Notes under the pieces: generated by a model
Database searches by the model: none
What the model saw: only the letters and a program-made list of their open reading frames with translations
Told to the model about the DNA's origin: nothing
Origin: Promethearchaeota archaeon
GTDB taxonomy: Archaea > Asgardarchaeota > Lokiarchaeia > Sigyniarchaeales > SOKP01
Direction: 5' to 3'
DNA length: 64,000 nucleotides
NCBI GenBank assembly: GCA_011364975.1
Contig: RDOE01000002.1
Span: 1-64,000 of the forward strand
Position numbers and translations under genes: made by a program
Shown here: positions 8,205-58,106 of the stretch, piece after piece
Numbering within the stretch: the first letter of the stretch is position 1
Layout of the letters: each line of letters starts with the position of its first letter

Positions 8205-9311
8205 TTATTTTAACTGTTTATATATCGCTAAACAAATATTCTGGAGGAAATCAAAATCTTTAAAATCTTTAACATTTCCTATAAGTGTCAAGGCAAAATT
8301 GTTAAAATTAATACATATTGTTAGTATTCTTTCACCTCCAATTGCAGCATAAAATAAAACTCTATTATATATTTCAGTATTCACTTTCTTAGACGAGGTT
8401 AAAAAGCTAATTGTTTCAGGAATATACTCACTGCAATCATAATTCTTATCAAAAATCTTAGAATAAAGAACTTTTCCTACTAAATCAACTAGGTAGAGTT
8501 GTCGTATATTTAAATCCCAATGAATATTCTTAAATTTCTCAATTAATTTGTTAGGCTTTTTAAGATATTTTCCCTCTTCTTTAAAAAACTCCAATGATAA
8601 GAATTCTTTTTCAATATTATTTGATAAATTAAACTGCTTTACGATTACTATATTTTTTCTTGGTTCAACGACTATAGTTTCACTTTGAACACTATTTAAA
8701 AGAAACCAATTTAAAGGTTCATTAAGGTAATTCTGATACAACAATCTAGCTGAATTGAGAACAAGTGGAATTAAAAAACTTAACTTTTCTTTTTCTGTAT
8801 ATTGTTTAGCGTGAATGTAAAATACAGTTCCACTTTTAGGTTCAATATAAATGATAGCTTTTAAAGTGGACTCTTGTTCAATTTCCACTATATTTGATGC
8901 CAACACATCTAAGCCTAGAGCATAATTAATTTGATTTACATTTTCTTTAAATTTTTTATACGCTGTTATTTCTCCATCAAATTCCTTATTCAGGAGGGGT
9001 TCAAATTCAGCTATAAATTGATCCATTATTTGATGAATGAAAGAATGTAATAGCTCTGTTAACTCAGTATTCTTGGTAGTTACTACAAAGGTAAGTTTTT
9101 GATAGAGATCATCACGCTTTTCAAATATAATATAAGTTTCTCGGAGCTTTAATGATTTAATATCTTCTCCTCTTTCATATGTAGCAAAACTGTTTATTGC
9201 TGTTAAAAAACCACTTAATAAATCATCTTTACCATTTTCCTGTGCCCCTTCAGGATGCCAATTAAACAATAAAGAACCAGATTCATTAATTATCAACAAA
9301 TCATCAAGCAT
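8205..9311 (-). CDS. Longin + roadblock + roadblock multidomain protein
   Basis: N-terminal LLIINESGSLLF...LLSGFLTAINSFA (longin). Two further alpha/beta units: KAIIYIEPKSGTVFY and RQLYLVDLVGKVLYS. Confidence 0.7.
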   Translation of the reverse strand: MLDDLLIINESGSLLFNWHPEGAQENGKDDLLSGFLTAINSFATYERGEDIKSLKLRETYIIFEKRDDLYQKLTFVVTTKNTELTELLHSFIHQIMDQFIAEFEPLLNKEFDGEITAYKKFKENVNQINYALGLDVLASNIVEIEQESTLKAIIYIEPKSGTVFYIHAKQYTEKEKLSFLIPLVLNSARLLYQNYLNEPLNWFLLNSVQSETIVVEPRKNIVIVKQFNLSNNIEKEFLSLEFFKEEGKYLKKPNKLIEKFKNIHWDLNIRQLYLVDLVGKVLYSKIFDKNYDCSEYIPETISFLTSSKKVNTEIYNRVLFYAAIGGERILTICINFNNFALTLIGNVKDFKDFDFLQNICLAIYKQLK

Positions 9312-35798: not shown

Positions 35799-36902
35799 TT
35801 AATAATTTGAAGGAGTCTTTGTTTTAATTTTATATTTTGGGATTTCTCTTACTTTTCTTAATTCTCTTTCAAAATCCTTCTTTTCTTGTAAAAATCTCTC
35901 TTTGTCTCGATCTAATTTCTCTCTTTCTCGTTTAATTATATTTTTTTCACTTTCAATTCGAGATTTTTCATTTTCTAATCGCTTAAATTGATTATTTAAT
36001 TCTTTTAATTTATTTTCTGAATTACGAATTTTATGTTCTAATGAAAAGTAAGTATCTTCAGCTTTAGGAACCTTGTAATTTAATTCCTTTAATTTTGCTT
36101 CTTGTTCTTTTCTCTTTCTTTCGAGGTTCTTTAATTCATCTTCTAGCTTGTCTTTAAATTTCTCTAATTCCGTTTTTTTCTTTTCTACTTCTCGGTTTTT
36201 AAGGTTTAAGTCTTTCTTTTTATATTTTACTCCTCGCTTTTCTTCTTGTAATTTTCTTTTCTCATCTTCAATTCGATTTCTTTCATCAATAATTTCTCTT
36301 TTCAAATCATTAATCTCTTTGTCTAAATTGTCTCTTTCTCTAGTTAGACTTTTTATTTCATTTCTTAACCGCATTAAATCGTTTTCTAGCTTTTCAATAG
36401 TTCGTTCTAATGCTTCCTCTCGTCTCTCCATTCCAGGTATTTTAGTTTTAATTTCCTTTATACGGTTTTGTGCTCCTTCTTTTTCTCTTTCTAATAGTCT
36501 TTTTTCCTCGGTTAAGTTTTCTTTTAATCGCTCTAATTGTTCTTGATATGCTCTTAAGTCTGACTTTTTTTGATTTAACTCTCTTTCTTTTTGATCAATC
36601 TTATTTCTACTCTCATATATTACATTTTTCATCGCATCCATTTCTTGCTTTAACTTCTCGCGCTGATCGAGTAGATCTCTGACTTCAAGTTCTTTTTCTT
36701 TTCTTTTATGTTCTAAATTTTTAATGTTTACTTGATAGTCTTCAAATTTCTTTATAACTCTTTCCCATTCGGTTTTTTCTCTGTTTAATTTAATTCTTTC
36801 TTCCTTAATTTTTTTCAATAATTTCGAATCTGGAATGCTTTCTATACTTTCTTCCGGTGTTTTCTCTCGAATTTGAAACTTTGGAATATTATTATCAGTC
36901 AT
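35799..36902 (-). CDS. Long coiled-coil protein with similar N- and C-terminal motifs
   Basis: About 320 aa of E/K/R-rich heptads; IPKFQIREKTP at the N-terminus and IPKYKIKTKTP at the C-terminus. Confidence 0.8.
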   Translation of the reverse strand: MTDNNIPKFQIREKTPEESIESIPDSKLLKKIKEERIKLNREKTEWERVIKKFEDYQVNIKNLEHKRKEKELEVRDLLDQREKLKQEMDAMKNVIYESRNKIDQKERELNQKKSDLRAYQEQLERLKENLTEEKRLLEREKEGAQNRIKEIKTKIPGMERREEALERTIEKLENDLMRLRNEIKSLTRERDNLDKEINDLKREIIDERNRIEDEKRKLQEEKRGVKYKKKDLNLKNREVEKKKTELEKFKDKLEDELKNLERKRKEQEAKLKELNYKVPKAEDTYFSLEHKIRNSENKLKELNNQFKRLENEKSRIESEKNIIKREREKLDRDKERFLQEKKDFERELRKVREIPKYKIKTKTPSNY

Positions 36903-37077: not shown

Positions 37078-37500
37078 ATGGAATTTGATGAGGAGTTTGA
37101 TGAAGAGTTTGATGAAGAGTTTGATGAGGAGTTTGATGAGGATTTAGATGAAGATCTAGATGAGCAATCATCAGAACCTCCTGGAAAAATTCCAGATGAT
37201 GATGTTAAAACCAAAACCCCTGAACCTAAAGTAATTCAGGAAGGGAAAAAGATTTCAGTCTACTTCATGTCAACTATAGGTCCAGGTGAAAAAAAGCAAA
37301 AACTGTTAATTAACACGGGAAATAAGGTTGGTGATGTAAAAGAAACCGCTGCAAATTTGTTTGGTTTAGATCCTGCTGACTTTCATTTATCCTCGAGTGG
37401 GGTTACGATGGATGAAAATTCAAGCTTAAACGATTATAATATAGCTGATGGAGATGATATTCTTTTGATTCCGGCAAGCACCGCGGGATTAAAATGTTAA
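37078..37500 (+). CDS. Ubiquitin-like (beta-grasp) protein A with acidic repeat N-tail, ending ASTAG-LKC
   Basis: KVGDVKE, GVTMDENSSLNDYNIADGDDILLIP resembles ubiquitin's LxDYNI; near-identical core to 39358..39690. Confidence 0.85.
   Translation: MEFDEEFDEEFDEEFDEEFDEDLDEDLDEQSSEPPGKIPDDDVKTKTPEPKVIQEGKKISVYFMSTIGPGEKKQKLLINTGNKVGDVKETAANLFGLDPADFHLSSSGVTMDENSSLNDYNIADGDDILLIPASTAGLKC
37081..37164 (+). repeat. Seven 12-bp tandem units encoding (EFDE)5(DLDE)2
   Basis: gaatttgatgag gagtttgatgaa gagtttgatgaa gagtttgatgag gagtttgatgag gatttagatgaa gatctagatgag. Confidence 0.92.
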
Positions 37501-37517
37501 TTAAATTTATAAAATAA

Positions 37518-38339
37518 TTAGCTTTTTCCATTAATTTTTTTTCTGGTAGGAATTAGAGCTAATTCATCATCATCTTCAATATTGTAGTCAATAATTTTTA
37601 AATCATCATCTAACAAGATTCCTCCAGAGGAAATTAGAAAACCATCTGGATTATAATCAAATAAAACACCTATTTTCTGTTTGATTATATTTATCAATTC
37701 CGATGTATCAATTATCATTATTTTCGTTTTCTCACCAGGTTCAATTAATGATCGAACATAAACACGTATTTTCTCATCAATTTCAACAATTCTTTTTGGT
37801 GGGGTATAATTTATAGGATCGTCTGTGACACTTCTGTTTTTTATCATAGTTTCAATTAGTTGAATTCTCTCATCAGGATCGAAGTATAATAATTCTCTAA
37901 TGAAAAAAATTTTATCCATTTTTGAAAGTCCCAATAGGTTTATTTTCTCTAAATCTTCTTTTTTAAATACAGAAAAGATATAGTCATTAATTTTTGGAAT
38001 ATCTTCAAATGATTCATTTGAATCAGCATAACTATCAATTAAAGGATTTGCCTCAAAGTAGTCTTCAATAAATTGATTAGCTAGATTTTTTAATGATTTC
38101 TTTTGAGGTTGATATTTTTGTTGAGGTAGCGCTTTTTTCTTTCCTAAAAACTTATATGAGCTCTCTTTTGACTGAATAATGGTATAAGCAGTACTAGTAG
38201 ATAATACAGCTACACTACTAATAGTTAAAAAGAGATATAAAGGAATACTCTCTACCCTCGAAAGGAACAATATTATATAAATACAAGTTACAACAATGTA
38301 GAGAGTTATTAAACCAAATGCTCTATTTTTATTTCTCAT
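37518..38339 (-). CDS. Membrane-anchored protein (2 N-terminal TM) with a C-terminal Ubl domain
   Basis: Two TM helices. C-terminal RSLIEPGEK...IKQKIGVLF...ISSGG...DYNIEDDDELALIP matches the neighbouring Ubls but lacks ASTAG. Confidence 0.8.
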   Translation of the reverse strand: MRNKNRAFGLITLYIVVTCIYIILFLSRVESIPLYLFLTISSVAVLSTSTAYTIIQSKESSYKFLGKKKALPQQKYQPQKKSLKNLANQFIEDYFEANPLIDSYADSNESFEDIPKINDYIFSVFKKEDLEKINLLGLSKMDKIFFIRELLYFDPDERIQLIETMIKNRSVTDDPINYTPPKRIVEIDEKIRVYVRSLIEPGEKTKIMIIDTSELINIIKQKIGVLFDYNPDGFLISSGGILLDDDLKIIDYNIEDDDELALIPTRKKINGKS

Positions 38340-38420
38340 AATTTTTATACTATTATTCTAAATTTCTAATGTATTATTCAAAATTTAAATTCCATTGGTA
38401 TAAATCTGAAATTTTATAAC

Positions 38421-39092
38421 CTACTCACCCACAATAGAGTTCATTATTTTTGTATATTTCTCAGTATCTAATCTAAATAATATTCTTTTATTATCTTTTT
38501 CAACCTTTATAATCCTTAATTTATGAAGAATTTTAAGATACTTTTTAATTGTATTGTAATTCTTCTTTAAATTCTTCGCTAATTGGGTAGCTTTTAAGCT
38601 ATTTTCTTCTTTTAACATAAATTCGATTATTTCTTGGATAATTACTTGTTTTAAATAATAAGATAACTCGTCGTATTCGGGATTTGACTCATAGTGAAAG
38701 ATTATTCTTTGATTATCAATTTTTTTTGATCTAGTAAATCCAAATTTTTCTAAGCAAGATAAATGCCATAATACTTGATTGCTACCAATATTTATCGCTT
38801 TCATAATTTCATTGATATTGGCAGGTTGTTTCTTGATATAATTATAAATTTCATTTCTGATTGGATGTTCGATAATATTATTTTTCATTAATTTAGTTCC
38901 TGGTATTAGGATTCTTTTTTTAATTAGTTTTTTTATAATTTTTTCAATACTATTTTTATTCAAATTTGGGTTAAATTTCACCCTATTATTTATATAAACA
39001 ACAATATCCTCAATTGAAAAAAATGGCTTCTTTTTTAAATACTCCTTTATTAGATCACAAACAATAGCTTGAAGGGTATCAGAAGAGCTCAT
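38421..39092 (-). CDS. Multi-winged-helix transcriptional regulator (ArsR-like)
   Basis: R.EIYNYI...ANINEI....NIGSNQVLWHL..LE and ATQLAKNLKKNYNTIKKYLKIL. Confidence 0.8.
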   Translation of the reverse strand: MSSSDTLQAIVCDLIKEYLKKKPFFSIEDIVVYINNRVKFNPNLNKNSIEKIIKKLIKKRILIPGTKLMKNNIIEHPIRNEIYNYIKKQPANINEIMKAINIGSNQVLWHLSCLEKFGFTRSKKIDNQRIIFHYESNPEYDELSYYLKQVIIQEIIEFMLKEENSLKATQLAKNLKKNYNTIKKYLKILHKLRIIKVEKDNKRILFRLDTEKYTKIMNSIVGE

Positions 39093-39357
39093 AAACTTTA
39101 ATTTTTTTTTGTTAAAATACCTTGATTTTTAAACTAAATCTTCTTTCTAAACAGTATTTCCAATAATTATATATTAATAAGCCTACACTCAATTTATAAA
39201 TATATTTTCCTAAGAATGCTTTTGAAACTTTAGTACTTATTTGAGAAATTTTTAATATTTCAAATTCATTCCAAATGGTTTTTTAATATCAGATTTGCGT
39301 GTTATTATTAAAAAATAAAATAAAATTAATATTTAAAAATATAAGAATGTGATTTGA

Positions 39358-39690
39358 ATGAGTTTTGACAACGATTTTGATGAAGAATTAGAGCCTGTTA
39401 AATCTAAAACTCCATCAAGTAAAACACCCACAACAGGTAAAAAGTTGACTTTATACTTTATGTCAACTATTGGTCCTGGTGAAAAGAAAGAGAAATTAAC
39501 AGTGAATGACGCTAACCGTGTAAGTGATATCAAACAAACATTAGGAAATTTATTTGGACTCGATCCTGATGAATTTCACCTTTCATCTGGTGGAGTAACT
39601 ATGGATGAAAGTAATCAACTAAAAGATTATAATGTTAATGATGGCGATGATATCCTTCTGATCCCAGCGAGTACTGCGGGATACTTTTAA
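39358..39690 (+). CDS. Ubiquitin-like (beta-grasp) protein B, ending ASTAG-YF; first gene of the E1-E2-JAMM-RING run
   Basis: RVSDIKQ, LKDYNVNDGDDILLIPASTAGYF; directly upstream of E1. Confidence 0.88.
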   Translation: MSFDNDFDEELEPVKSKTPSSKTPTTGKKLTLYFMSTIGPGEKKEKLTVNDANRVSDIKQTLGNLFGLDPDEFHLSSGGVTMDESNQLKDYNVNDGDDILLIPASTAGYF

Positions 39691-39716
39691 ATAATTCTTT
39701 TCATAAAATCTAATAT

Positions 39717-39750
39717 AAGGGCATTAAGCCCTTTAATTTTTTTATTTTTT
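39717..39750 (+). terminator. Hairpin plus T-tract between Ubl-B and E1
   Basis: Stem aagggc, loop attaa, stem gccctt, followed by T-runs. Confidence 0.5.
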
Positions 39751-39774
39751 TGATTAACATTTAAGGTGATAATA

Positions 39775-40998
39775 TTGGATAAGGATTCAGATTTTTTTGC
39801 AAAAGGAATGTCAGCGGAAGAGAGAGATCTGTATGATCGCCAATTTCGTTTAGAAGGATGGTCTCAGAAATTGGTAAAAAACTCGAGAGTCTTAATAGCA
39901 GGTGTTGGTGGATTAGGTTGTGAAATTGCAAAAAATCTAGCGATGTTAGGAGTAGGTCATTTAGATCTTGTTGATTTAGACATTATTGAGCATTCTAATT
40001 TAAATCGTCAAATTTTATTTACAGGCGCTAAGTTAGGGGCACCAAAAGCAATTGTCGCGGCTCAAAAATTAACCGAGATTAATCCAAATATTGTTGTGAA
40101 AGGATATCATTCTTCTTTAGAACGGTTAGACCCTGCTTTATACTATGCTGCTGATGTTATTATTGGAGGCCTTGATTCAATGAATGCCCGCTTGAATTTA
40201 AATGCTCAGTGTATACGCTTTAGAAAGCCGTTTGTAGATGGTGGAGTATCTGGTTATCATGGGCATATGTATTCGATCTTTCCTTATCAAAATGCTTGTT
40301 ATGAATGTAATCCACTTCCAGTATCGGAAAGTGATGAAATGGCGGCCTGTACTGTAGTAGGGGTTCCTCGAAAACGTATTCATTGTCTTTTTAAAGGAGA
40401 TATGGCCTTTAAAGAAAAATTTGATAGAGATCCAAATCCAAAAAATATAACAGATATTGAATTTATTCAAAAAGTTGCAAATGAATTAGTAAATAAACAT
40501 AATTTCTTACCAGAATATACAATAGATGATATTGTTAAAATCATTAATCGCCACGATCCTGGGATCATCACGATTAATGCGGTAATATCTGCTTTAGAAT
40601 CTCATGAGGCTGTTAAAATATTGCATTGGAAAAAAGGTCATAAGGGTTTAGGACACCCTATTGCGAGTTATGTAATATTTAATGCAATGACAATGAAACT
40701 TTATCACATAGAAAAGAAGAGAAATCCAGAATGTTCTCAATGTGGTAAAAATACAAGGCGTGTGGTCATAAAGATGAGAGCTCAATCACCATGTTTGAAT
40801 ATAATTCGAACATTAAAAAAGAATGGGTTTGAATTAGAGCCTGAATTTGAACCAGTTCTAACCCTGCAAGATTATAATGATATCTTGGTTTTAGATTTAG
40901 AGCAGAGTTTGATTGAGAATGGTTTGAGGAATTACGAATTTTTAACTGTTGCAGGGTTTAAGGGTGGAGAAATTTATGTTACCTTAAAATTAATTTAA
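39775..40998 (+). CDS. Ubiquitin-activating E1-like enzyme (ThiF/UBA family)
   Basis: YDRQ, GVGGLG, DLDIIEHSNLNRQ, CYEC and CSQC Zn pair, catalytic ACTVVGVPRKRIHC (cf. eukaryotic PxCTxxxxP...HC). TTG start after GGTGA. Confidence 0.92.
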   Translation: MDKDSDFFAKGMSAEERDLYDRQFRLEGWSQKLVKNSRVLIAGVGGLGCEIAKNLAMLGVGHLDLVDLDIIEHSNLNRQILFTGAKLGAPKAIVAAQKLTEINPNIVVKGYHSSLERLDPALYYAADVIIGGLDSMNARLNLNAQCIRFRKPFVDGGVSGYHGHMYSIFPYQNACYECNPLPVSESDEMAACTVVGVPRKRIHCLFKGDMAFKEKFDRDPNPKNITDIEFIQKVANELVNKHNFLPEYTIDDIVKIINRHDPGIITINAVISALESHEAVKILHWKKGHKGLGHPIASYVIFNAMTMKLYHIEKKRNPECSQCGKNTRRVVIKMRAQSPCLNIIRTLKKNGFELEPEFEPVLTLQDYNDILVLDLEQSLIENGLRNYEFLTVAGFKGGEIYVTLKLI

Positions 40999-41090
40999 AG
41001 TTTAATTTAAAAATGATTGGTATCTAAAATTTATCAATAAAAGAAAAGTATGATAAAAAAATTATAATTATAATAAAAAAGGTTAAGAAA

Positions 41091-41618
41091 ATGAGTATAA
41101 GAAGTAGTCGGATTTCTCAAGATTTTGCAGGATTAAAAAAGTTACTCAAGGATGGTACTATTATTCAATTAAAACCTTTTAATCCAAAAAAGAAAAGCAT
41201 TGATCATTTAGCAATTACGCTCAAAGGACCTAAAAATACAGCATATGCAGGAGGCTTGTTTAAATTGGAGATGAGTTTCCCTGCTCAATATCCTAAGCAA
41301 CCACCATTTGTAAGAATGCACACTCCGATATGGCATCCAAATTTTTGGCCAAAACCAAATGAATATAAGGGACAGAGAAATATTTGTTTAGCATTAGTGG
41401 ATCCTTCTTTAGCAGGTAAAAAAGGAGGATGGAGTCCTTCAAAAACTGCTGTCACCATTGTTCAAGCCATAATTGCTATGTTAAATACCAGTGGTAAATA
41501 TGTAAATCCTACTGATGTGTTTAATAAGAAAGCTGCAATGGAAATGATGAAAGATCCAAAGTTTTTCGATAAAAAGGTTAAAAATTTAGTAAAGAAGTAT
41601 GCAAAGGATAAATGGTGA
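41091..41618 (+). CDS. Ubiquitin-conjugating E2-like enzyme
   Basis: GPKNTAYAGGLF, FPAQYPKQPP, WHPN...ICL, WSPS. Confidence 0.93.
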   Translation: MSIRSSRISQDFAGLKKLLKDGTIIQLKPFNPKKKSIDHLAITLKGPKNTAYAGGLFKLEMSFPAQYPKQPPFVRMHTPIWHPNFWPKPNEYKGQRNICLALVDPSLAGKKGGWSPSKTAVTIVQAIIAMLNTSGKYVNPTDVFNKKAAMEMMKDPKFFDKKVKNLVKKYAKDKW

Positions 41619-41624
41619 ATCTAA

Positions 41625-42446
41625 ATGAATGAAGATGATAAGATTAGTATCTCGATTAAGGAAGCAGTTAAGCAAAAAATTAAAGAGAAAATTAAAAAAG
41701 AATTACTTGAAGAGATATATAATGAACTAAAGTTAGAAGAAGAATTAGAGGAAGAAATAACATTTGAGTTAATAGATACCAAACCGTTAGAACACTCAGA
41801 AAGTATTAAGGAAAAACTCGAACCCATTCCTATGGTGCCAGTAAAAACTACCGCTAATAGTGATAAAATTAAAGCACAAATTGTGATAACTGTTAAAGCT
41901 GTTCTAAAGATCGCAAGTCATTCTTTAAAGTACGCTCACTCTAAAATTCCACGAGAAGATTGGGTTGAAGTGATCGGCTTGTTGGCAGGAAAATACGATA
42001 ACGCAAAGGGAGTGTTATATGTTGAAGATGCTTATCCTATGGGTCATGGCACAGCTGTCTACGCAGAGATTAATGTTGAAAGGAATCGAAAGTCTGGTCA
42101 TGAACGAGCGTATGAAGAAATTATCAAAAAGGGGTTATTCATTTGTGGATGGTATCATTCTCATCCTTCCTATGGTTGTTTTATGTCTAGAGAAGATTTA
42201 GGAACTCAAGCACGGTATCAAAAGTTATGGGATAAAGCTATAGCTTTAGTTATAGATCCATATCAAATTAATGGATTATCATTAGGATTTGAAATATATC
42301 GTGCAAATTTTAAAACTAAAAAATGGTTTTCGGTACCTTTTGACATCAAGGGGTACTTAGACGTAAAAATGTTACCTGAGATATTAGACTTTATGAATCC
42401 AATAATTGAGGGAAGAGCAGCCTATTTAGAATATGATGAAGAATAA
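41625..42446 (+). CDS. JAB1/MPN+ (JAMM) metalloprotease, CSN5/Rpn11-like
   Basis: EVIGLL, GWYHSHPSYGCFMSRED, TQ..YQ, ALVIDP; acidic helical N-terminal extension. Confidence 0.92.
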   Translation: MNEDDKISISIKEAVKQKIKEKIKKELLEEIYNELKLEEELEEEITFELIDTKPLEHSESIKEKLEPIPMVPVKTTANSDKIKAQIVITVKAVLKIASHSLKYAHSKIPREDWVEVIGLLAGKYDNAKGVLYVEDAYPMGHGTAVYAEINVERNRKSGHERAYEEIIKKGLFICGWYHSHPSYGCFMSREDLGTQARYQKLWDKAIALVIDPYQINGLSLGFEIYRANFKTKKWFSVPFDIKGYLDVKMLPEILDFMNPIIEGRAAYLEYDEE

Positions 42447-42475
42447 TTTTTGAGTTGAAAGGGGTTAATTAAATC

Positions 42476-43672
42476 ATGGTAAAAAAGAAGGGAATAGCAA
42501 TAATATTTATTCTATTTCTCCTAATAGGACTTATCCATGGTTTAATTTCAATTTCACTAAATATTTCTTTAACCTGGATATTAATTGGATTGTGGATAAT
42601 AGTTTCCTTAAAAATTATAGAAAATATAAGAAGACATCGCGAGTTTAATTCTCCTCATAATACTGCCTTTTTTGTTGTAATCCCTTTATTCATGGGGATT
42701 TTTTATTCCATTTGGGGGTATTTTACGGGTATTTTTGGAGAAAATCTTATCGAAGGTTCGAATCTTTATTTTAGTGGTTGGAGTCTTATTTTTGGATTTC
42801 CTTATGTAACATATGGTTCCTACTCATTATATCGTTGCTTTAAGAAATATAATGTTATTTATTTTGGGGCAAAATCTATAAAAGCTAAGACTTTTGGATT
42901 TATTTTAGCTTTTGTGGTACTTAGCTTTATTATAACTTATTGGATAATATTTTATTCAATATTTGATTATTTTGAGACAATATTAATACCACTTCATTTG
43001 TCGTTAAATCTTAATCTTTTAATATTATTTATTAGTTCTATTTTAATATTAACTATATTTGGATTTTTTGCTTCACAGAGAACCCTACCTGCATTAACTA
43101 ATGATTATATAGAACAACGAACGAGAAAAATAAATTCTTTAGCGAATGCTTCACCGTCATCTTTGCCCAGAACTCAGAGACGACAAGTAACAAATAGACA
43201 CTCAATCCAAACGCCCTCCAGTAAAACTGAAACTATTGCTTCAAGAACTCGAACTAATTCATCAAGAACTACTCCAACCTCTCAAAGAAAGACTCAAAGG
43301 ACCAAGATAACTTATAAAACGAATTCAACAAGAAAAACCTCTGGAACATCACAAAATCGAGGAAAAAAAATGCGAAATTTAGATATATACAAACCTATAG
43401 CAGCATTACTTTCACCAGAAGATTTTAAATGTATTTTCTGCTTTAAATTACCAAAACTCCCCGAAGATAGAAGTAGAGGTATCATTTTATGCCCAAATTG
43501 TAAATATCCTGCACATGCAGATGAGTTCAAAGATTGGGTAAGAACTTCGAATCTCTGTTCAAGATGCAGTACACCAATTTCCTCTAGCTTCAGAAACAAT
43601 CCTAAAATTATTAGCGTAAAAAATTATATGGTAATTTATAAATACTTTTTAAACAAGAAAAATAAAAAATAG
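42476..43672 (+). CDS. Polytopic membrane protein with a C-terminal RING-like domain (candidate E3 ligase)
   Basis: About 6 TM helices, an S/T/R-rich linker, then CIFC-x16-CPNC-x4-H-x2-E..W..CSRC; last gene of the Ubl run. Confidence 0.75.
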   Translation: MVKKKGIAIIFILFLLIGLIHGLISISLNISLTWILIGLWIIVSLKIIENIRRHREFNSPHNTAFFVVIPLFMGIFYSIWGYFTGIFGENLIEGSNLYFSGWSLIFGFPYVTYGSYSLYRCFKKYNVIYFGAKSIKAKTFGFILAFVVLSFIITYWIIFYSIFDYFETILIPLHLSLNLNLLILFISSILILTIFGFFASQRTLPALTNDYIEQRTRKINSLANASPSSLPRTQRRQVTNRHSIQTPSSKTETIASRTRTNSSRTTPTSQRKTQRTKITYKTNSTRKTSGTSQNRGKKMRNLDIYKPIAALLSPEDFKCIFCFKLPKLPEDRSRGIILCPNCKYPAHADEFKDWVRTSNLCSRCSTPISSSFRNNPKIISVKNYMVIYKYFLNKKNKK

Positions 43673-53096: not shown

Positions 53097-54692
53097 TTAT
53101 TTATTTTTTTTAAATAATAACTCATCTTGAATATATGGTCTTCCGGTATATAAACAAAGCTCTGCTTTACTTAATTCTCTCCCTAAGTAATTTAAATGAT
53201 AAATATCATCGGTTATGCGTAATTCCATAACCTTTTTACTTAAAGTTTCTGCATTCTTTCCTATTATAAGATTGAGTAGCTCATCGTTATTAGAATAAAA
53301 TAATATATAAATTTGTTTTGAATAGTGATCCACAAAAAACCTAAAATAACCTTTTTTATCAGAAATGTAATCTGGGTTTTCAGGATCGACGAAAATGGCT
53401 TTTGTCTCATCAATTTGAGGGAAATCCTGACTAACTTTTCCCTTTGCTTTAAATATTGAAATGCCATGATTAATAGGAGGTGTTTTTTTACATTTTGCTA
53501 AATAATTAAGTTTAATAGATTCTTTTAATTCACGAACTCCGCCCATAAGTTTTATACTATGTTCTACGGTAAATAAAACGCCCATCTCTAATTCTATTGC
53601 TATACAAGCTAATAATCCATTAATACCGATGGAATCAATGTCCATTAATTCAACAACGTTTGAAATTCCAAAAAATAATGGTAATTCAATGCTTTTATCT
53701 CTTATTTGAGAGACTTTCTTTTTATATAAAAAATAAGCTTCCAAAGAATTTGTAAACCCAGGACTTATTGGAGTCTCAAGCAGAGGATCAGCTATCAGTT
53801 TTTGAAATCCCAGATTTTGCAATTCCTCTGTAAAGTAAAGTAAATTTTCAACTCTTAATGCAGGTTCTTTTGGAAAATACGCTGCTTTAATATTCGTGGG
53901 AAGAATTACAATCGGTATATCTTTTGGAATATTTAGTAGCTGTTTGTAATTTCCTTTATCAAAACTTAGAATCATATCAATCCCTTCATCTATTGCGGAC
54001 CTTATTTCTTCTTTTTCCATTGAATCTATACTTATTAAAGTATTAAATTTAGATTGAATGAGATTAATAACTTCACGAACCCTTTCAGGATTAGGTTTAT
54101 TAGCTATACATCCTATATCAATAATATCTGCTCCTGAGTCTAAATAATGCTTCACTTTTCTAAGTATTGACTCATTAGGCTTCTCTGGACAATTTACTAT
54201 CTCAGCGATTATGGGAGGGGGTAAATCGCGACCAATTATTAAATCGGATTTTTGTCTATTAATATAAAAAGTATGAGTCCCAATATTTTCTTTAGCTAAT
54301 TTAATTTTTTCAGATAGGATATCATTATATTCTCGAATTCCAGATAATTGGATTAACTTATTAGCTGCAATATTGGTAGATAATTGAATTGAGTCTAAAT
54401 TATTTAATATAAAAGGCAAATCAGACGCAAATTCTGGGCCTTTTTTAATTTCAATTGAAAATTCTTTTTCTAGATTAAAAGTATCCCATTGAACAAATCC
54501 AGGCAATAATATAATATCATAATTAGATTTGGAGATTTTTTTCAAAATCTCTTTAGTTAAATCTTCCGATAGAAAGGCTGAAATTGTTATAGGTGCTTTG
54601 TATACTTCGATTTCATTCTTATGTATATCTTTTATAAGGTTATTAATTATGGGATAACTATTAAGACCGGTTATAATTAATATTCTTTTAAT
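53097..54692 (-). CDS. Dihydropteroate synthase-like protein (methanopterin biosynthesis; N-terminal DUF6513-like, C-terminal DUF4346-like)
   Basis: RILIITG, ILLPG, KGP..A.DLP, IIAEI, GADIIDIG, SIDS, ADPLL, GISNV.EL.D.DS.GIN, D.KGYF, H..YLGREL.KAE. Frame is open to an ATT at 54692. Confidence 0.85.
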   Translation of the reverse strand: MKRILIITGLNSYPIINNLIKDIHKNEIEVYKAPITISAFLSEDLTKEILKKISKSNYDIILLPGFVQWDTFNLEKEFSIEIKKGPEFASDLPFILNNLDSIQLSTNIAANKLIQLSGIREYNDILSEKIKLAKENIGTHTFYINRQKSDLIIGRDLPPPIIAEIVNCPEKPNESILRKVKHYLDSGADIIDIGCIANKPNPERVREVINLIQSKFNTLISIDSMEKEEIRSAIDEGIDMILSFDKGNYKQLLNIPKDIPIVILPTNIKAAYFPKEPALRVENLLYFTEELQNLGFQKLIADPLLETPISPGFTNSLEAYFLYKKKVSQIRDKSIELPLFFGISNVVELMDIDSIGINGLLACIAIELEMGVLFTVEHSIKLMGGVRELKESIKLNYLAKCKKTPPINHGISIFKAKGKVSQDFPQIDETKAIFVDPENPDYISDKKGYFRFFVDHYSKQIYILFYSNNDELLNLIIGKNAETLSKKVMELRITDDIYHLNYLGRELSKAELCLYTGRPYIQDELLFKKNK

Positions 54693-55779
54693 CTAAATCA
54701 CTTAATAATCTCTCTTTATTGAATGGAATATAAATATCGTCTAATATTGAGCCCTTAGCTTCTCTAACTCGTAGATTATTTACAATGGATTCAAATTTGC
54801 CTCCCAGCAAACCGTTAGCTATAAAGGCTGCTCCTTGGGCAGCATGTTTTGATAAATGGCTATATGATTTCATTAGTCTTACTGGAGCAATTTCACTTAA
54901 ATTATTAATCATTTTCTGATCTAAATATTTTAGTTCTGCTCCTCTCCCTGCTATTAAAATTTCACATATCTTTTTTCGGTTAGTAAATGAAGCAGAGATA
55001 CCATAAACTGCTTTTTTGACATCTGATAAATACGCATCAAGAGCCATCTTAGTTTGGTCATCCTTTTGTGCTAGTAATATTATCTCATCTAAGCTCAAAT
55101 CTTGATAACCTGCAATAAAAGACACTCCGCCTTTATAAATATTCTTCTTTTTTATGTCTTTAATTAAATAAGCTAACTCTCCATCAAGACTACCGCATGC
55201 TCGAAATCCCATTATATTTGATCCTCCAATACCGTCGATGATTTGACCATTTTCAATTGCAAGTACAGCAGTAAATCCGTAACCTATTTCTACCATGATA
55301 AAATTTACGTCTTCAGGGCGGTTATTTTTTCGTTCCATCTGATCCCTTATACCTGTAACAGCAGTACATAATTTATCTGCCGTCCCCATGTCAATTTTGT
55401 TAATTTTTCGATAATTTGGAACAGTTGGTAAATGTTTAACACCTGGAACAATAACTCCTGGAATATTTTCAGCTTTAATAAGCCTAAGAACATTACCAAG
55501 ACCAATTAATTTATCCTTTTCTTTTTTCTCGAATTTGAGTACTGTAAAAAATATATCTTTCTCTGTTAAATCTTTTACACTCTTTAATGGTAACCCAAAA
55601 CCGCTTGGCGCTACCATTAAATCAATATTTTCCATTGATTTGATAACTGCAATAGCTTTTTTTGGATCTTCAATTAACTCTTTTGATGGTAATGAGGTGT
55701 CTAATATTATTTCATCCTCATCTAAGCCACAAAAATCCCACGAAAGTGACCCCGGATCAATTCCAAGTACCCTATACAC
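54688..55779 (-). CDS. DUF1464 family ASKHA-fold protein
   Basis: GIDPGS.S.D, APSGFGLP, LPTVP.YRK.NKIDMGTADK, G.LDGE.AY, AAQGAA.IA.G..GG. Confidence 0.8.
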   Translation of the reverse strand: MYRVLGIDPGSLSWDFCGLDEDEIILDTSLPSKELIEDPKKAIAVIKSMENIDLMVAPSGFGLPLKSVKDLTEKDIFFTVLKFEKKEKDKLIGLGNVLRLIKAENIPGVIVPGVKHLPTVPNYRKINKIDMGTADKLCTAVTGIRDQMERKNNRPEDVNFIMVEIGYGFTAVLAIENGQIIDGIGGSNIMGFRACGSLDGELAYLIKDIKKKNIYKGGVSFIAGYQDLSLDEIILLAQKDDQTKMALDAYLSDVKKAVYGISASFTNRKKICEILIAGRGAELKYLDQKMINNLSEIAPVRLMKSYSHLSKHAAQGAAFIANGLLGGKFESIVNNLRVREAKGSILDDIYIPFNKERLLSDLD

Positions 55780-55960
55780 TAATAATCAGATCTTATATAA
55801 TGCTCAATTTATAAAAGTTCAATAATTCATTTTATATTTATTAATTTTTAATAGTTCTTCTTAAAATCTAAAGAATAAATTTTAACTAGAAAAAATTAAT
55901 ACTCATATAATTTGATTAATAATTTTTTCCATTGGAGTAAGAATTCTTTTATATATCATT

Positions 55961-56701
55961 ATGAATATGGATTATAAATCTATAGGACTAGAAGAGAATT
56001 CATTGTATGAAGTCTTAGCGACAACTTTTTCAATTGAAAGTGAAAATCAATTTGTTCCTAATACGGCATCTATGGGAATTAGAATATTGAATAATGGTTT
56101 AATTAGTATGAGCCCTTATCCTTCAACAAAAACTTTTCAAAATTTGAATCAAATACCCCTTGTAACGCTTAATTTTGTAGATAATATCTTTTTATACGCT
56201 TTAACTTCATTAAAAGGTTCAAATATGCTTAATAATATTAAAGGAGAAAAGGAAAATTTTTATGATTATTATCAATTAAAATCATTGACTCATTTTAAGG
56301 ATCAACTTAAAGCTAAAAAACTCCAAGAAAGTTTCTCAATTCCTTTTATAAAAGATTCTTGGGCAATAATTATTAGTGAAGTAAAAATGAGAAATAATAG
56401 ACATAAAGAAGATGAGTTTGGAATGCTGAAATTAACGGAATTTTTACTAAGCCCAATTTTAATTAAAAAATTTAGAGAATCATACAAACTTTTTAATAGA
56501 GCAGAAAATATTACTTTAGAAACTATAATTTTAGCAACAAGATTAAAGGTTGCCTTTGAAGTAAAAGATAAAAGCTCTTTAGATCAAATCAACTATAAAA
56601 TCGCAGAAAATGTAAAAACAATAAACAGATTTAGTAAAAATGAAAGGGTGTTGAGATCCTTAGAATATATTCAGCAATATATTGAGAAATTTAAAGATTA
56701 A
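55961..56701 (+). CDS. DUF447 family protein
   Basis: YEVLATT, PNTASMGI, T.T..NL, FNRA....LE.II.ATR. Confidence 0.8.
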   Translation: MNMDYKSIGLEENSLYEVLATTFSIESENQFVPNTASMGIRILNNGLISMSPYPSTKTFQNLNQIPLVTLNFVDNIFLYALTSLKGSNMLNNIKGEKENFYDYYQLKSLTHFKDQLKAKKLQESFSIPFIKDSWAIIISEVKMRNNRHKEDEFGMLKLTEFLLSPILIKKFRESYKLFNRAENITLETIILATRLKVAFEVKDKSSLDQINYKIAENVKTINRFSKNERVLRSLEYIQQYIEKFKD

Positions 56702-57093
56702 TCCTTTACTTTAATGGTTTCAATATACATTAAGGGATACTTTAGGGTATCAATCCACTTAATAAAGGCAGTTACTTCAACAGATTCAAATTCAATAATT
56801 ACTTTAGCATTTATGATTTTTCCAGTTACTTCATCATAGTCAAACTCGGTAGATTTATCACCAGAGATTTTAGTTTTATCAATATCGATTTTCACAAATT
56901 TGACATATGGTTGGCATGATATTGCAGCTTCTATTCCTTTTTCAATAGATTCAATAACTGCTGAATCTGAACGTATTGGTATACCACATAAAATGTGATA
57001 AAGTGCTCCTAATTTTATTCCAACTTCAAAGCAAGCTCTTTCTCTAATACTCAGGTTAGGATCAAAGAAAGACCGTTCATCAGTAAGAGGCAT
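56698..57093 (-). CDS. mptD: Dihydroneopterin aldolase MptD
   Basis: RERACFEVGIKLGALYH, AISCQPYV, LKYPLMY. Confidence 0.88.
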   Translation of the reverse strand: MPLTDERSFFDPNLSIRERACFEVGIKLGALYHILCGIPIRSDSAVIESIEKGIEAAISCQPYVKFVKIDIDKTKISGDKSTEFDYDEVTGKIINAKVIIEFESVEVTAFIKWIDTLKYPLMYIETIKVKD

Positions 57094-58106
57094 TAAATAT
57101 CATCCAAATACTCAATTTTTGCTCCATCATTATTTGGTTTACAGATGTAAATATGACCACCTATAGGTTTCAGACGCATTTGCACTTCTTTTAATAAGGC
57201 ATTTGCTTCTTCATCTGATTCGACAATTCCAACTATACTTGGACCAAATGAAGACATAGCATATGCTTTTAATCCAAATTCCTCAAAAAATTTAAGAATC
57301 CCCTTAACAATGTCGTGTTGTAGAGAAATCTCGATTTTCTTGAATCCAATTTTTTGAATACTTTTTAACCCTTCTCCGAAACATTTTAAATCGTTTTTAA
57401 TAATTCCTGGAATAACTTTCATTAAAATTTGATGAGAAACTTCTGTGACTTCTGATTTAGGTATTGGGGCATTAGATTGAAAAATACTCACTTCTTCATC
57501 CCCATAAGCACCTTTTTTTACATTTGGTATAACTAAAACAAATCTCCAATTTTCAGGGATGGGATATCTTAAAATTGTAATTGCAGGATCTACTTCGGTT
57601 GATGCTGAAGATGGCAAAAAGGTTTCTTTTTCTTTTCCTATTCCAAAATCATGCCCTGCATCTAATATGAAACCCCCGTTTTCAAAACCTCTCCAGCCTA
57701 TTCCAGAAGTTCCTCCTCTTCCAACGAGTTTGGTTAATTCATTCGTATTTAAATTATTTATATTCTTTAGTTTGGTTATAGCTCGAGCAATAGCTAAGGA
57801 TAATTGGGTTTTTGAGCCTAACCCTACGTGGCTGGGGTAATATCTTATAAGATTAAAATGAAAATTTTTATTACTTATATTAAACGCTTTAAATACCCTT
57901 GATGCAATTTCGTTTATTACCTCGATTGATTCTCGATAATATTTATTTGCTTTAATTTTGAATTCTTCAGCATTGTTTGAAGCTTCGAAAACAACATTTG
58001 GACGGTCTAACATAAGACCTATCCCTCCATCTACCCTTCCCGTGAAACCATTCTCATCAATTAAGGAAAGATGAATACGACAGGGCGTAATTATTCTAAT
58101 TTTCAT
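57093..58106 (-). CDS. mptG: Beta-ribofuranosylaminobenzene 5'-phosphate (RFA-P) synthase, GHMP family
   Basis: TPCRIHLSLID, GGIG, HVGLGSKTQL, GRGGTSGIG, GGFILDAGH, MSSFGP. Confidence 0.9.
   Translation of the reverse strand: MKIRIITPCRIHLSLIDENGFTGRVDGGIGLMLDRPNVVFEASNNAEEFKIKANKYYRESIEVINEIASRVFKAFNISNKNFHFNLIRYYPSHVGLGSKTQLSLAIARAITKLKNINNLNTNELTKLVGRGGTSGIGWRGFENGGFILDAGHDFGIGKEKETFLPSSASTEVDPAITILRYPIPENWRFVLVIPNVKKGAYGDEEVSIFQSNAPIPKSEVTEVSHQILMKVIPGIIKNDLKCFGEGLKSIQKIGFKKIEISLQHDIVKGILKFFEEFGLKAYAMSSFGPSIVGIVESDEEANALLKEVQMRLKPIGGHIYICKPNNDGAKIEYLDDI

Follow-up and report, generated by a model that had tools for sequence, protein, structure and literature searches.

Asgard archaea carry a known ubiquitin-like gene cluster, reportedly described by Spang in 2015 and Zaremba-Niedzwiedzka in 2017. 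The ubiquitin operon of Candidatus Caldiarchaeum subterraneum, as presented in PMC5654768 and PMC6043591, encodes a pro-ubiquitin, proteins resembling the activating (E1) and conjugating (E2) enzymes, a small RING finger protein and an Rpn11-like JAMM protease. Its pro-ubiquitin extends nine residues beyond the terminal Gly-Gly and, according to PMC5654768, is activated by the E1 only after the Rpn11 homologue has cut it. The Helarchaeial pro-ubiquitin continues past Gly-Gly with the residues SPKN (bioRxiv 10.1101/2023.07.25.550441), and the Caldiarchaeum (PMC5654768) and Helarchaeial (same preprint) ubiquitylation cascades are both described as rebuilt in vitro. A discrete ubiquitin region is likewise reported from Lokiarchaeota in PMC9192718, the main text of which makes no mention of a di-glycine, diglycine or GG motif. 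Here we describe a locus of this kind in a 64,000-nucleotide stretch of DNA (the window; positions 1 to 64,000 of contig RDOE01000002.1, assembly GCA_011364975.1) from a Promethearchaeota archaeon of the Lokiarchaeia, whose genome is represented by 200 contigs and is 99% complete. Two of its genes, UblA and UblB, encode ubiquitin-like proteins (Ubls) that are very probably ubiquitin-family modifiers, or tags, of the Lokiarchaeial (Promethearchaeota) ubiquitin-like operon, and they represent a lineage-restricted Ala-Gly variant of this known Asgard operon. The operon as such is already known; in this widespread family the terminus, predicted to be the reactive end, is Ala-Gly, in a tail devoid of arginine. 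We found no paper discussing such an end in an Asgard ubiquitin, although supplementary alignments may already show these termini.

The products of UblA and UblB are paralogues that align with 73 identities over 119 positions (61%, BLASTP E 2e-49), and the alignment ends exactly at a glycine (Gly137 of UblA, Gly108 of UblB). The strings that a first-pass annotation of the window had picked out as common to both (YFMSTIGPGEKK, NLFGLDP, FHLSS, GVTMDE and the terminal DGDDILLIPASTAG) are all present in this alignment, and the two sequences part right after ...IPASTAG, as it had stated. UblA comprises, in order, an acidic repeat arm, a KTKTP motif, the beta-grasp domain, the ...IPASTAG end and the tail LKC, and UblB lies directly upstream of the E1 gene. 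A database search recovered 857 relatives of the tag family at E <= 0.001, which places the observation of paired tags far beyond chance; these relatives are named as Promethearchaeota (Loki-type Asgard archaea), and a copy at the UblA position recurs in related loci.

In the best 120 of these relatives, which were used for the tail count, the end P-x-[ST]-x-A-G is kept without exception (120/120), and it is followed by no residue in 33, one in 2, two in 59, three in 25 and four in 1. A second sample consisted of 80 related loci from public genomes, in which tags were sought with a pattern that did not require the glycine: 135 of their 136 tag copies read x-S-x-A-G after the proline, the penultimate residue is alanine in all 135, and 94 of the 135 end right at the glycine. 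Within the phylum, 34 copies from 8 GTDB families were compared, of which 31 come from 6 families that do not include this genome; all 34 end in A-G with 0-7 extra residues. Where ubiquitin has L-R-L-R-G-G the tags have P-A-S-T-A-G, so that the predicted reactive end is Ala-Gly, fixed across the family. As far as this comparison shows, the terminal glycine is supported as the mature, reactive end of the tags and the residues beyond it as a removable extension, in keeping with what the first-pass annotation had claimed; the contrary outcome that it had named, homologues failing to conserve the glycine, is not what the three samples display.

Both tag positions, one upstream of a membrane-anchored Ubl protein and the other upstream of the E1 gene, are conserved in the related loci, and at both of them tails are present or absent and vary in length and sequence. 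At the DNA level, GGT TAG ACT TAT A.. with its stop in one copy corresponds to GGT AGA CTT ATA TAA (RLI and stop) in another, and TAA in one copy corresponds to TAC TTT TAA (YF and stop) in another. These pairs suggest that the tails arose by read-through after stop codon loss and are not conserved propeptides. The idea that the tail is a conserved regulatory propeptide can be ruled out, the tail being absent from 94 of 135 copies and variable at both positions.

Sequence and structure comparisons both point to the ubiquitin family. UblB scores 29.1 bits against the Pfam ubiquitin profile (PF00240), above the cut-off of 25.4, and this profile matches 30 of 30 family members of alignment A1 at E <= 1 (best 6.9e-9). 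When the PDB was searched with one sequence, and again with the profile, ubiquitin-family chains accounted for all of the best 60 matches listed, which comprise ubiquitin, ISG15, ubiquilin and Caldiarchaeum ubiquitin. The AlphaFold2 model of UblB (predicted local distance difference test score, pLDDT, 75.6) has a disordered segment at residues 1-23 and a beta-grasp domain at residues 29-103; its first-ranked Foldseek match is Caldiarchaeum ubiquitin (6fno_D, E 8.7e-8), followed by ubiquitin variants, ISG15, NEDD8 and SUMO. VIA-align superposes residues 28/29-108 of the model on ubiquitin residues -1/0 to 76 at 1.1-1.5 Å, and Gly108 falls on ubiquitin Gly76, placing the terminal glycine in register. 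Profile comparison of the tag family with 44 eukaryote-type ubiquitin repeats by hhalign gives a probability of 95.4% (E 1.8e-8), and the L-x-DYN segment, which the first-pass annotation had regarded as ubiquitin-like, is indeed common to the tags and ubiquitin in the PDB sequence alignment. The tags accordingly possess a beta-grasp fold of the ubiquitin type together with the sequence profile of that family.

The genomic setting is that of an archaeal ubiquitin operon, with genes for a Ubl, E1, E2, JAMM and zinc-finger protein at 39358-43672, all on the forward strand. The E1 is of the canonical ubiquitin/SUMO/NEDD8 type, its best solved relatives being SAE2 (1.2e-36), Uba1 (1.2e-35) and UBA3 (4e-33), with weaker matches to MoeB (2.3e-31), ThiF (4.6e-25) and UBA5 (5e-15). 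The best solved relatives of the E2 are ubiquitin E2s (Ubc15 at 5e-16, UBE2R and UBE2T), and UFC1 is not among the best 60 of its 265 PDB matches. The JAMM protein is closest to the Caldiarchaeum Rpn11-like protease (6fjv/6fnn, 7.5e-16) and then to Rpn11 and CSN5; its stretch HSHPSYGCFMSREDL fits the motif H-x-H-x7-S-x2-D, and it is predicted to trim the tails and to deconjugate the tags. The multi-pass membrane protein that closes the operon ends in a RING-like domain with the pattern C-x2-C...C-P-x-C-x3-H...C-x2-C, at least 90% conserved in 48 sequences, and on the basis of this pattern it is a candidate ligase (E3). Among the 80 related loci, many of them truncated where a contig stops, the E1 is found in 61, the E2 in 58, the JAMM gene in 52 and the RING-like gene in 50, in the same gene order, and the flanking genes for the membrane Ubl, the winged-helix protein and the coiled-coil protein in 56, 59 and 52. 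The tags are thus accompanied by a dedicated E1 and UBC-type E2 in adjacent genes of kept order.

Several observations weigh against the assignment of UblA and UblB to this operon as ubiquitin-family modifiers. UblA scores 24.0 bits with the Pfam ubiquitin profile, just below the cut-off, and the tags lack the C-terminal Gly-Gly of the ubiquitin family: their penultimate residue is alanine and not glycine, so that they miss a feature by which ubiquitin, NEDD8 and SUMO are defined. A quick tree of 66 rows over 82 columns, in which 36 of 63 forks are open and reference UFM1, URM1 and SAMP sequences are not included, leaves the Ala-Gly family paraphyletic; the phylogeny that the first-pass annotation had called for could be built, but it is poorly resolved, places the family not cleanly beside ubiquitin and gives no evidence either way. 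The genome encodes six ThiF-type proteins and two UBC E2s, and it is gene order alone that pairs the tags with the adjacent E1 and E2. An E3 role for the membrane protein is weakened by the presence of only seven clear Cys/His residues and of no significant Pfam RING match (zf-RING_16, E 0.23). Finally, we infer every step for the Ala-Gly family, from cleavage through adenylation and thioester formation to conjugation.

With these points in mind, the following sequence of events may be proposed. UblA and UblB would be made as precursors with three (LKC) or two (YF) extra residues, which the Rpn11-like JAMM of the operon most likely removes. The exposed glycine would be adenylated by the adjacent canonical-type E1 and then held as a thioester on the E1 cysteine; the tag would be handed to the UBC-type E2 and joined to target lysines, probably at the membrane with the aid of the membrane-embedded RING-like protein, and the JAMM protein would also reverse the conjugation. 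The tails themselves would have no function, being read-through of lost stops into AT-rich 3' sequence (the G+C content of the window is about 26-35%), and would be tolerated because a trimming enzyme is present. A terminator-like hairpin with a T-run separates the UblB stop from the E1 start, and could result in more tag than enzyme transcript. A scan for bacterial-type promoters and terminators, which is ill-suited to archaea, found no enrichment over shuffled sequence (35 versus 38.9, and 3 versus 3.1).

Features of the tag locus in the window and of the related genes elsewhere in the genome
Feature	Position	Strand	Details or basis
Coiled-coil protein, 367 residues	35799-36902	-	C-terminal tip ...EIPKYKIKTKTPSNY, encoded at 35811-35825
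Open reading frame, 50 residues	37062-37214	-	Shadow of the UblA 12-base repeat
UblA, 140-residue ubiquitin-family modifier precursor (predicted)	37078-37500	+	End DGDDILLIPASTAG-LKC; open reading frame list
12-base tandem repeat, 6 copies	37080-37151		Codes for the acidic UblA arm, (E-F-D-E)n
KTKTP motif, disordered N-terminal arm of UblA, residues 44-48	37207-37221	+
Gly137 codon GGA, predicted mature C-terminus of UblA	37486-37488	+	DNA read; Ala-Gly conservation
UblA tail LKC and stop codon	37489-37497; 37498-37500	+	DNA after Gly: TTA AAA TGT TAA
Membrane-anchored protein, 273 residues, third paralogous C-terminal Ubl domain, between the tag genes	37518-38339	-	End LIPTRKKINGKS
Winged-helix (ArsR-type) protein	38421-39092	-	Pfam HTH_5, E 2.7e-11
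UblB, 110-residue ubiquitin-family modifier precursor (predicted)	39358-39690	+	End DGDDILLIPASTAG-YF; open reading frame list
KSKTP motif, disordered N-terminal arm of UblB, residues 15-19	39400-39414	+	Arm pLDDT < 50
Gly108 codon GGA, predicted mature C-terminus of UblB	39679-39681	+	DNA read; model in register with ubiquitin residue 76
UblB tail YF and stop codon	39682-39687; 39688-39690	+	DNA after Gly: TAC TTT TAA
Terminator-like hairpin and T-run	39717-39733
E1, 410 residues, canonical ubiquitin/SUMO/NEDD8 type	39766-40998	+	Pfam ThiF, 193 bits
E2, 175 residues, canonical UBC fold	41091-41618	+	Pfam UQ_con, 89 bits; HPN and ICL in the sequence
JAMM/MPN+ metalloprotease, 273 residues, Rpn11-like	41625-42446	+	Pfam JAB, 52.3 bits
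Multi-pass membrane protein, 398 residues, C-terminal Cys/His-rich RING-like domain	42476-43672	+	At least 4 hydrophobic segments
Gly-Gly ubiquitin, 84 residues	L001 1486-1740 (contig C191)	-	...ATQAGG-K; Pfam ubiquitin, 41 bits
Second E1 (524 residues) and second UBC E2 (172 residues)	L016 4582-6156 / 8449-8967 (contig C132)
UFM1-type operon: UBA5-like E1, JAMM-like protein, tag, UFC1-like E2	L015 4325-7269 (contig C149 ~54325-57269)

The first-pass annotation had viewed the two tags as an intermediate beta-grasp family that links ubiquitin- and SAMP-like proteins to the UFM1-type single-Gly modifiers and bears on the origin of the latter, an interpretation we regard as highly improbable. Its starting point was the single terminal glycine with a short extension and a Pro-x4-Gly spacing like that of the UFM1 tail it quoted; however, the ubiquitin tail is equally long (L71-RLRG-G76), so that this spacing does not discriminate between the two. 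No UFM1 chain occurs among the 50 Foldseek or the 50 VIA-align matches listed for UblB, which groups with ordinary ubiquitin, an outcome that the annotation had itself named as contrary to its proposal. A control for this comparison is furnished by the same genome, which has a separate and dedicated UFM1-type operon on another contig: its E1 (277 residues) has UBA5 as the best solved relative (1.3e-49; next MoeB, 1.7e-26), its JAMM-like protein has 358 residues, its tag has 88 residues and ends in DRGIVG, and its E2 (180 residues), the only UFC1-like E2 of the genome, matches only UFC1 (Pfam 26.3 bits; PDB 3e-4). The family of the 88-residue tag keeps ...IIDRG-x-VG, with occasional tails of 1-4 residues, and its model (pLDDT 85) recovers UFM1 structures at Foldseek ranks 1-9, with template modelling (TM) scores up to 0.82. 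The method therefore separates UFM1 from ubiquitin, and the tags of the window fall with ubiquitin. Their enzymes are equally at odds with a UFM1 pathway, the adjacent E1 lying far nearer SAE2, UBA1 and UBA3 (about 1e-36 to 1e-33) than UBA5, and the E2 being of the UQ_con type. The Pfam Ufm1 profile (PF03671) matches 0 of 30 tag members at E <= 1, and nothing in the genome passes E 0.5 with it; it also misses the structurally UFM1-like control, and is thus too insensitive here. Two results do favor a link. The tag family matches the UFM1-like family of this genome (alignment A2) with an hhalign probability of 38.5% (E 3.3e-4) over 61 columns that span the first strands and the helix (T-x-YF...G-x-EKK), as against 1.1% for eukaryote-type ubiquitin and the same family, and the quick tree places the UFM1-like group inside the Ala-Gly diversity (support of 81-88 in the Shimodaira-Hasegawa-like approximate likelihood-ratio test). 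The latter group sits on a branch of length 3.52, however, and ubiquitin (1.03), the GG protein (3.36) and the membrane Ubl (0.77) likewise attach within the Ala-Gly family. We take the attachment and the weak profile match to reflect a typical long-branch placement plus the common fold, and assign a small probability to a special kinship of the two archaeal families. We reject a UFM1 kinship of the tags on the fold ranking among the matches listed, on the typing of E1 and E2 and on the existence of the separate operon. As UFM1 and UFC1 are stated in PMC10183829 (2023) to be seen only in eukaryotes, it is that separate operon which is relevant to the origin of UFM1; the tags of the window do not bear on it.

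Two further explanations accept the ubiquitin-like fold and dispute the use to which it is put. The tags might never be conjugated and act as non-covalent adaptors or regulators in the manner of Hub1 or of UBL domains, the Ala-Gly end being kept for binding. That the locus encodes one clearly non-conjugatable Ubl domain, in the membrane-anchored protein, lends this some plausibility, as do the conserved motif of the N-terminal arm, which suggests protein-protein docking, and the circumstance that conjugation of the Ala-Gly family is a matter of deduction. Nevertheless, a terminal glycine that is strictly invariant, and after which 94 of 135 copies stop, marks an activated carboxylate, the linkage to E1, E2 and JAMM genes is constant, and the poly-Ubl genes P0121 (three units) and P0122 (two) consist of units that each end in ...AG and hence need cleavage after the glycine, as in polyubiquitin. 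In fusion proteins, too, the domain is C-terminal, and A-G lies at most 8 residues from the end in 39 of 41 Ala-Gly representatives; altogether we consider the adaptor role improbable. The remaining possibility, to which we accord the lowest probability of all, is that the tags are sulfur carriers of the MoaD/ThiS/SAMP/Urm1 type, or dual-function proteins, on whose glycine the E1 would form a thiocarboxylate that serves the thiolation of cofactors or tRNA. Archaeal SAMPs are dual-function proteins, and the first-pass annotation had likened the GD.I.LIP segment to MoaD and SAMP; a weak Pfam ThiS match is found in 1 of 30 members (E 0.013). Yet the other 29 members do not match ThiS, while all 30 match ubiquitin, the E1 is nearer the canonical E1s than MoeB or ThiF, the E2 and RING-like protein of the operon would be superfluous for sulfur transfer, and such a role could fall to other MoeB/ThiF-like proteins of the genome, which are shorter. 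The features expected of a sulfur carrier, namely a ThiS/MoaD profile, a Gly-Gly end and a MoeB-type E1 without an E2, are not those of this locus, in which the tags end in Ala-Gly.

The disordered N-terminal arms of UblA and UblB both contain a K[ST]KTP motif, with SKTP as the consensus in alignment A1. Among about 3434 open reading frames of the genome this motif occurs three times (1.4 expected), always in the tag locus, the third copy forming the extreme C-terminus of the coiled-coil protein. An extended pattern, IP-x3-[IV]-[KR]-x-[KT]-T, likewise has three occurrences, all at the tag locus and including the N-terminus of the coiled-coil protein. Of 51 complete homologues of the latter, 45 have a C-terminal IK[STA]K[TS]P, which is tripled in some. 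K[ST]KTP may be an acceptor-lysine or docking consensus. The acidic portion of the UblA arm is encoded by a short tandem repeat, of which a small open reading frame on the opposite strand is a shadow.

Beyond what the first-pass annotation had seen, the locus encodes a third Ubl domain, at the C-terminus of the membrane-anchored protein between the tag genes. This domain is 37% identical to UblB over 86 residues (E 2e-20), and the protein scores 26.8 bits with the Pfam ubiquitin profile and has a hydrophobic stretch at residues 5-34. It lacks the conserved terminal glycine, its relatives ending in LIPSRKEKK, LIPLRRKEK or LIPSRKNKKK. It resembles membrane UBL proteins of the Herp/Usa1 type, which work with membrane RING ligases. 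The adjoining winged-helix protein of the ArsR type is probably a regulator of the tag locus.

The phyletic pattern of the Ala-Gly family is limited: of 201 genomes sampled from the phylum, 72 have it, and they belong to 7 of 27 GTDB families; the searched members of the remaining 20 (0/43 and 0/19, for instance) yielded no copy. When 1.84 billion proteins were searched, 402 matched at E <= 0.001, and the 150 representatives listed comprise 41 of the Ala-Gly type, 53 of the LRGG polyubiquitin type and 56 others. The non-standard arrangements of the Ala-Gly type (drawn from P0121, P0122, P0138, P0152, P0156 and P0254) include, besides the head-to-tail poly-Ubl genes with three and two units, fusions that place the domain at the C-terminus of a HerA-like ATPase and of CDC48_N plus VWA proteins, and one instance of a Ubl internal to a protein of 1395 residues. 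The whole archaeal operon, with a tag identity of 93%, was also encountered on a contig titled Candidatus Nanopelagicaceae bacterium (L034), which was probably mis-binned into a bacterial metagenome-assembled genome.

Elsewhere in the same genome, an 84-residue Gly-Gly ubiquitin is encoded with no E1 or E2 beside its gene, and together with the second E1 and second UBC E2, found on a further contig, it may give this cell a second ubiquitin pathway. This leads to a broader proposal, which we offer tentatively and consider unlikely as a whole, that three insulated pathways coexist, pairing the Ala-Gly tags with the adjacent E1 and E2, the Gly-Gly ubiquitin with the second E1 and E2, and the Val-Gly UFM1-like tag with the UBA5-like and UFC1-like enzymes, and that a tail code keeps them apart. 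In this proposal I-K-[ST]-K-T-P would serve as acceptor or docking site, the coiled-coil protein would be a dedicated substrate, and chains could be built on the arm of the tag itself, as in SUMO-2/3; the reaction, mediated by the membrane RING-like protein and by the membrane-anchored Ubl, would take place at the membrane. More generally, the locus illustrates that one archaeon can carry several parallel ubiquitin-like systems, which bears on the diversification of the eukaryotic tags. The Ala-Gly tags also constitute a natural test of the need for a penultimate glycine in canonical-type E1s and Rpn11-type proteases. There is a practical consequence as well: since the end is Ala-Gly and the tail has no arginine, standard di-Gly remnant proteomics would miss the conjugates, the trypsin remnant of UblB conjugates being its last 19 residues, DYNVNDGDDILLIPASTAG.

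Comparison with described systems brings out what is shared and what is peculiar to this locus. With the UFM1 pathway the tags share the single terminal glycine, sometimes followed by a few residues, and the weak profile match over 61 columns, but in fold matches and in the types of E1 and E2 they differ from UFM1, UBA5 and UFC1. SUMO-2/3 would provide a working analogy, being ubiquitin-fold tags whose flexible N-terminal arm bears a short lysine motif that is also present in substrates; nonetheless, the tags have no sequence kinship with SUMO-2/3 beyond the common fold, and the K[ST]KTP lysines are only putative acceptors. Eukaryotic ubiquitin, NEDD8 and ISG15 are approached in the beta-grasp fold, the tail in register, the L-x-DYN segment, the canonical-type E1 and the UBC E2, and some Ala-Gly family members are encoded head-to-tail like polyubiquitin. 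The tags differ from eukaryotic ubiquitin in being only about 15-25% identical to it in structural alignments, in carrying a disordered N-terminal arm of 28-60 residues, and in a tail with no equivalent of Arg72 or Arg74 and no di-Gly. The Asgard di-Gly ubiquitins (the Helarchaeial GG-SPKN and the GG-K form of this genome) have a similarly short extension and belong likewise to the ubiquitin family, but they end in Gly-Gly, and the Ala-Gly tags stand apart from them as a separate paralogous family with enzymes of its own. The Caldiarchaeum system matches the locus in its precursor tag, single-chain E1, UBC E2, JAMM protease and zinc-finger candidate E3, and contributes both the top structural match of UblB (6fno_D) and the top solved relative of the JAMM protein (6fjv). 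In contrast to its Gly-Gly tag with nine further residues, there are here two free paralogous tags with Ala-Gly and 0-7 further residues, long acidic N-terminal arms with K[ST]KTP and a third, membrane-anchored Ubl, and the protein with the RING-like domain crosses the membrane several times, where Caldiarchaeum has a small soluble one.

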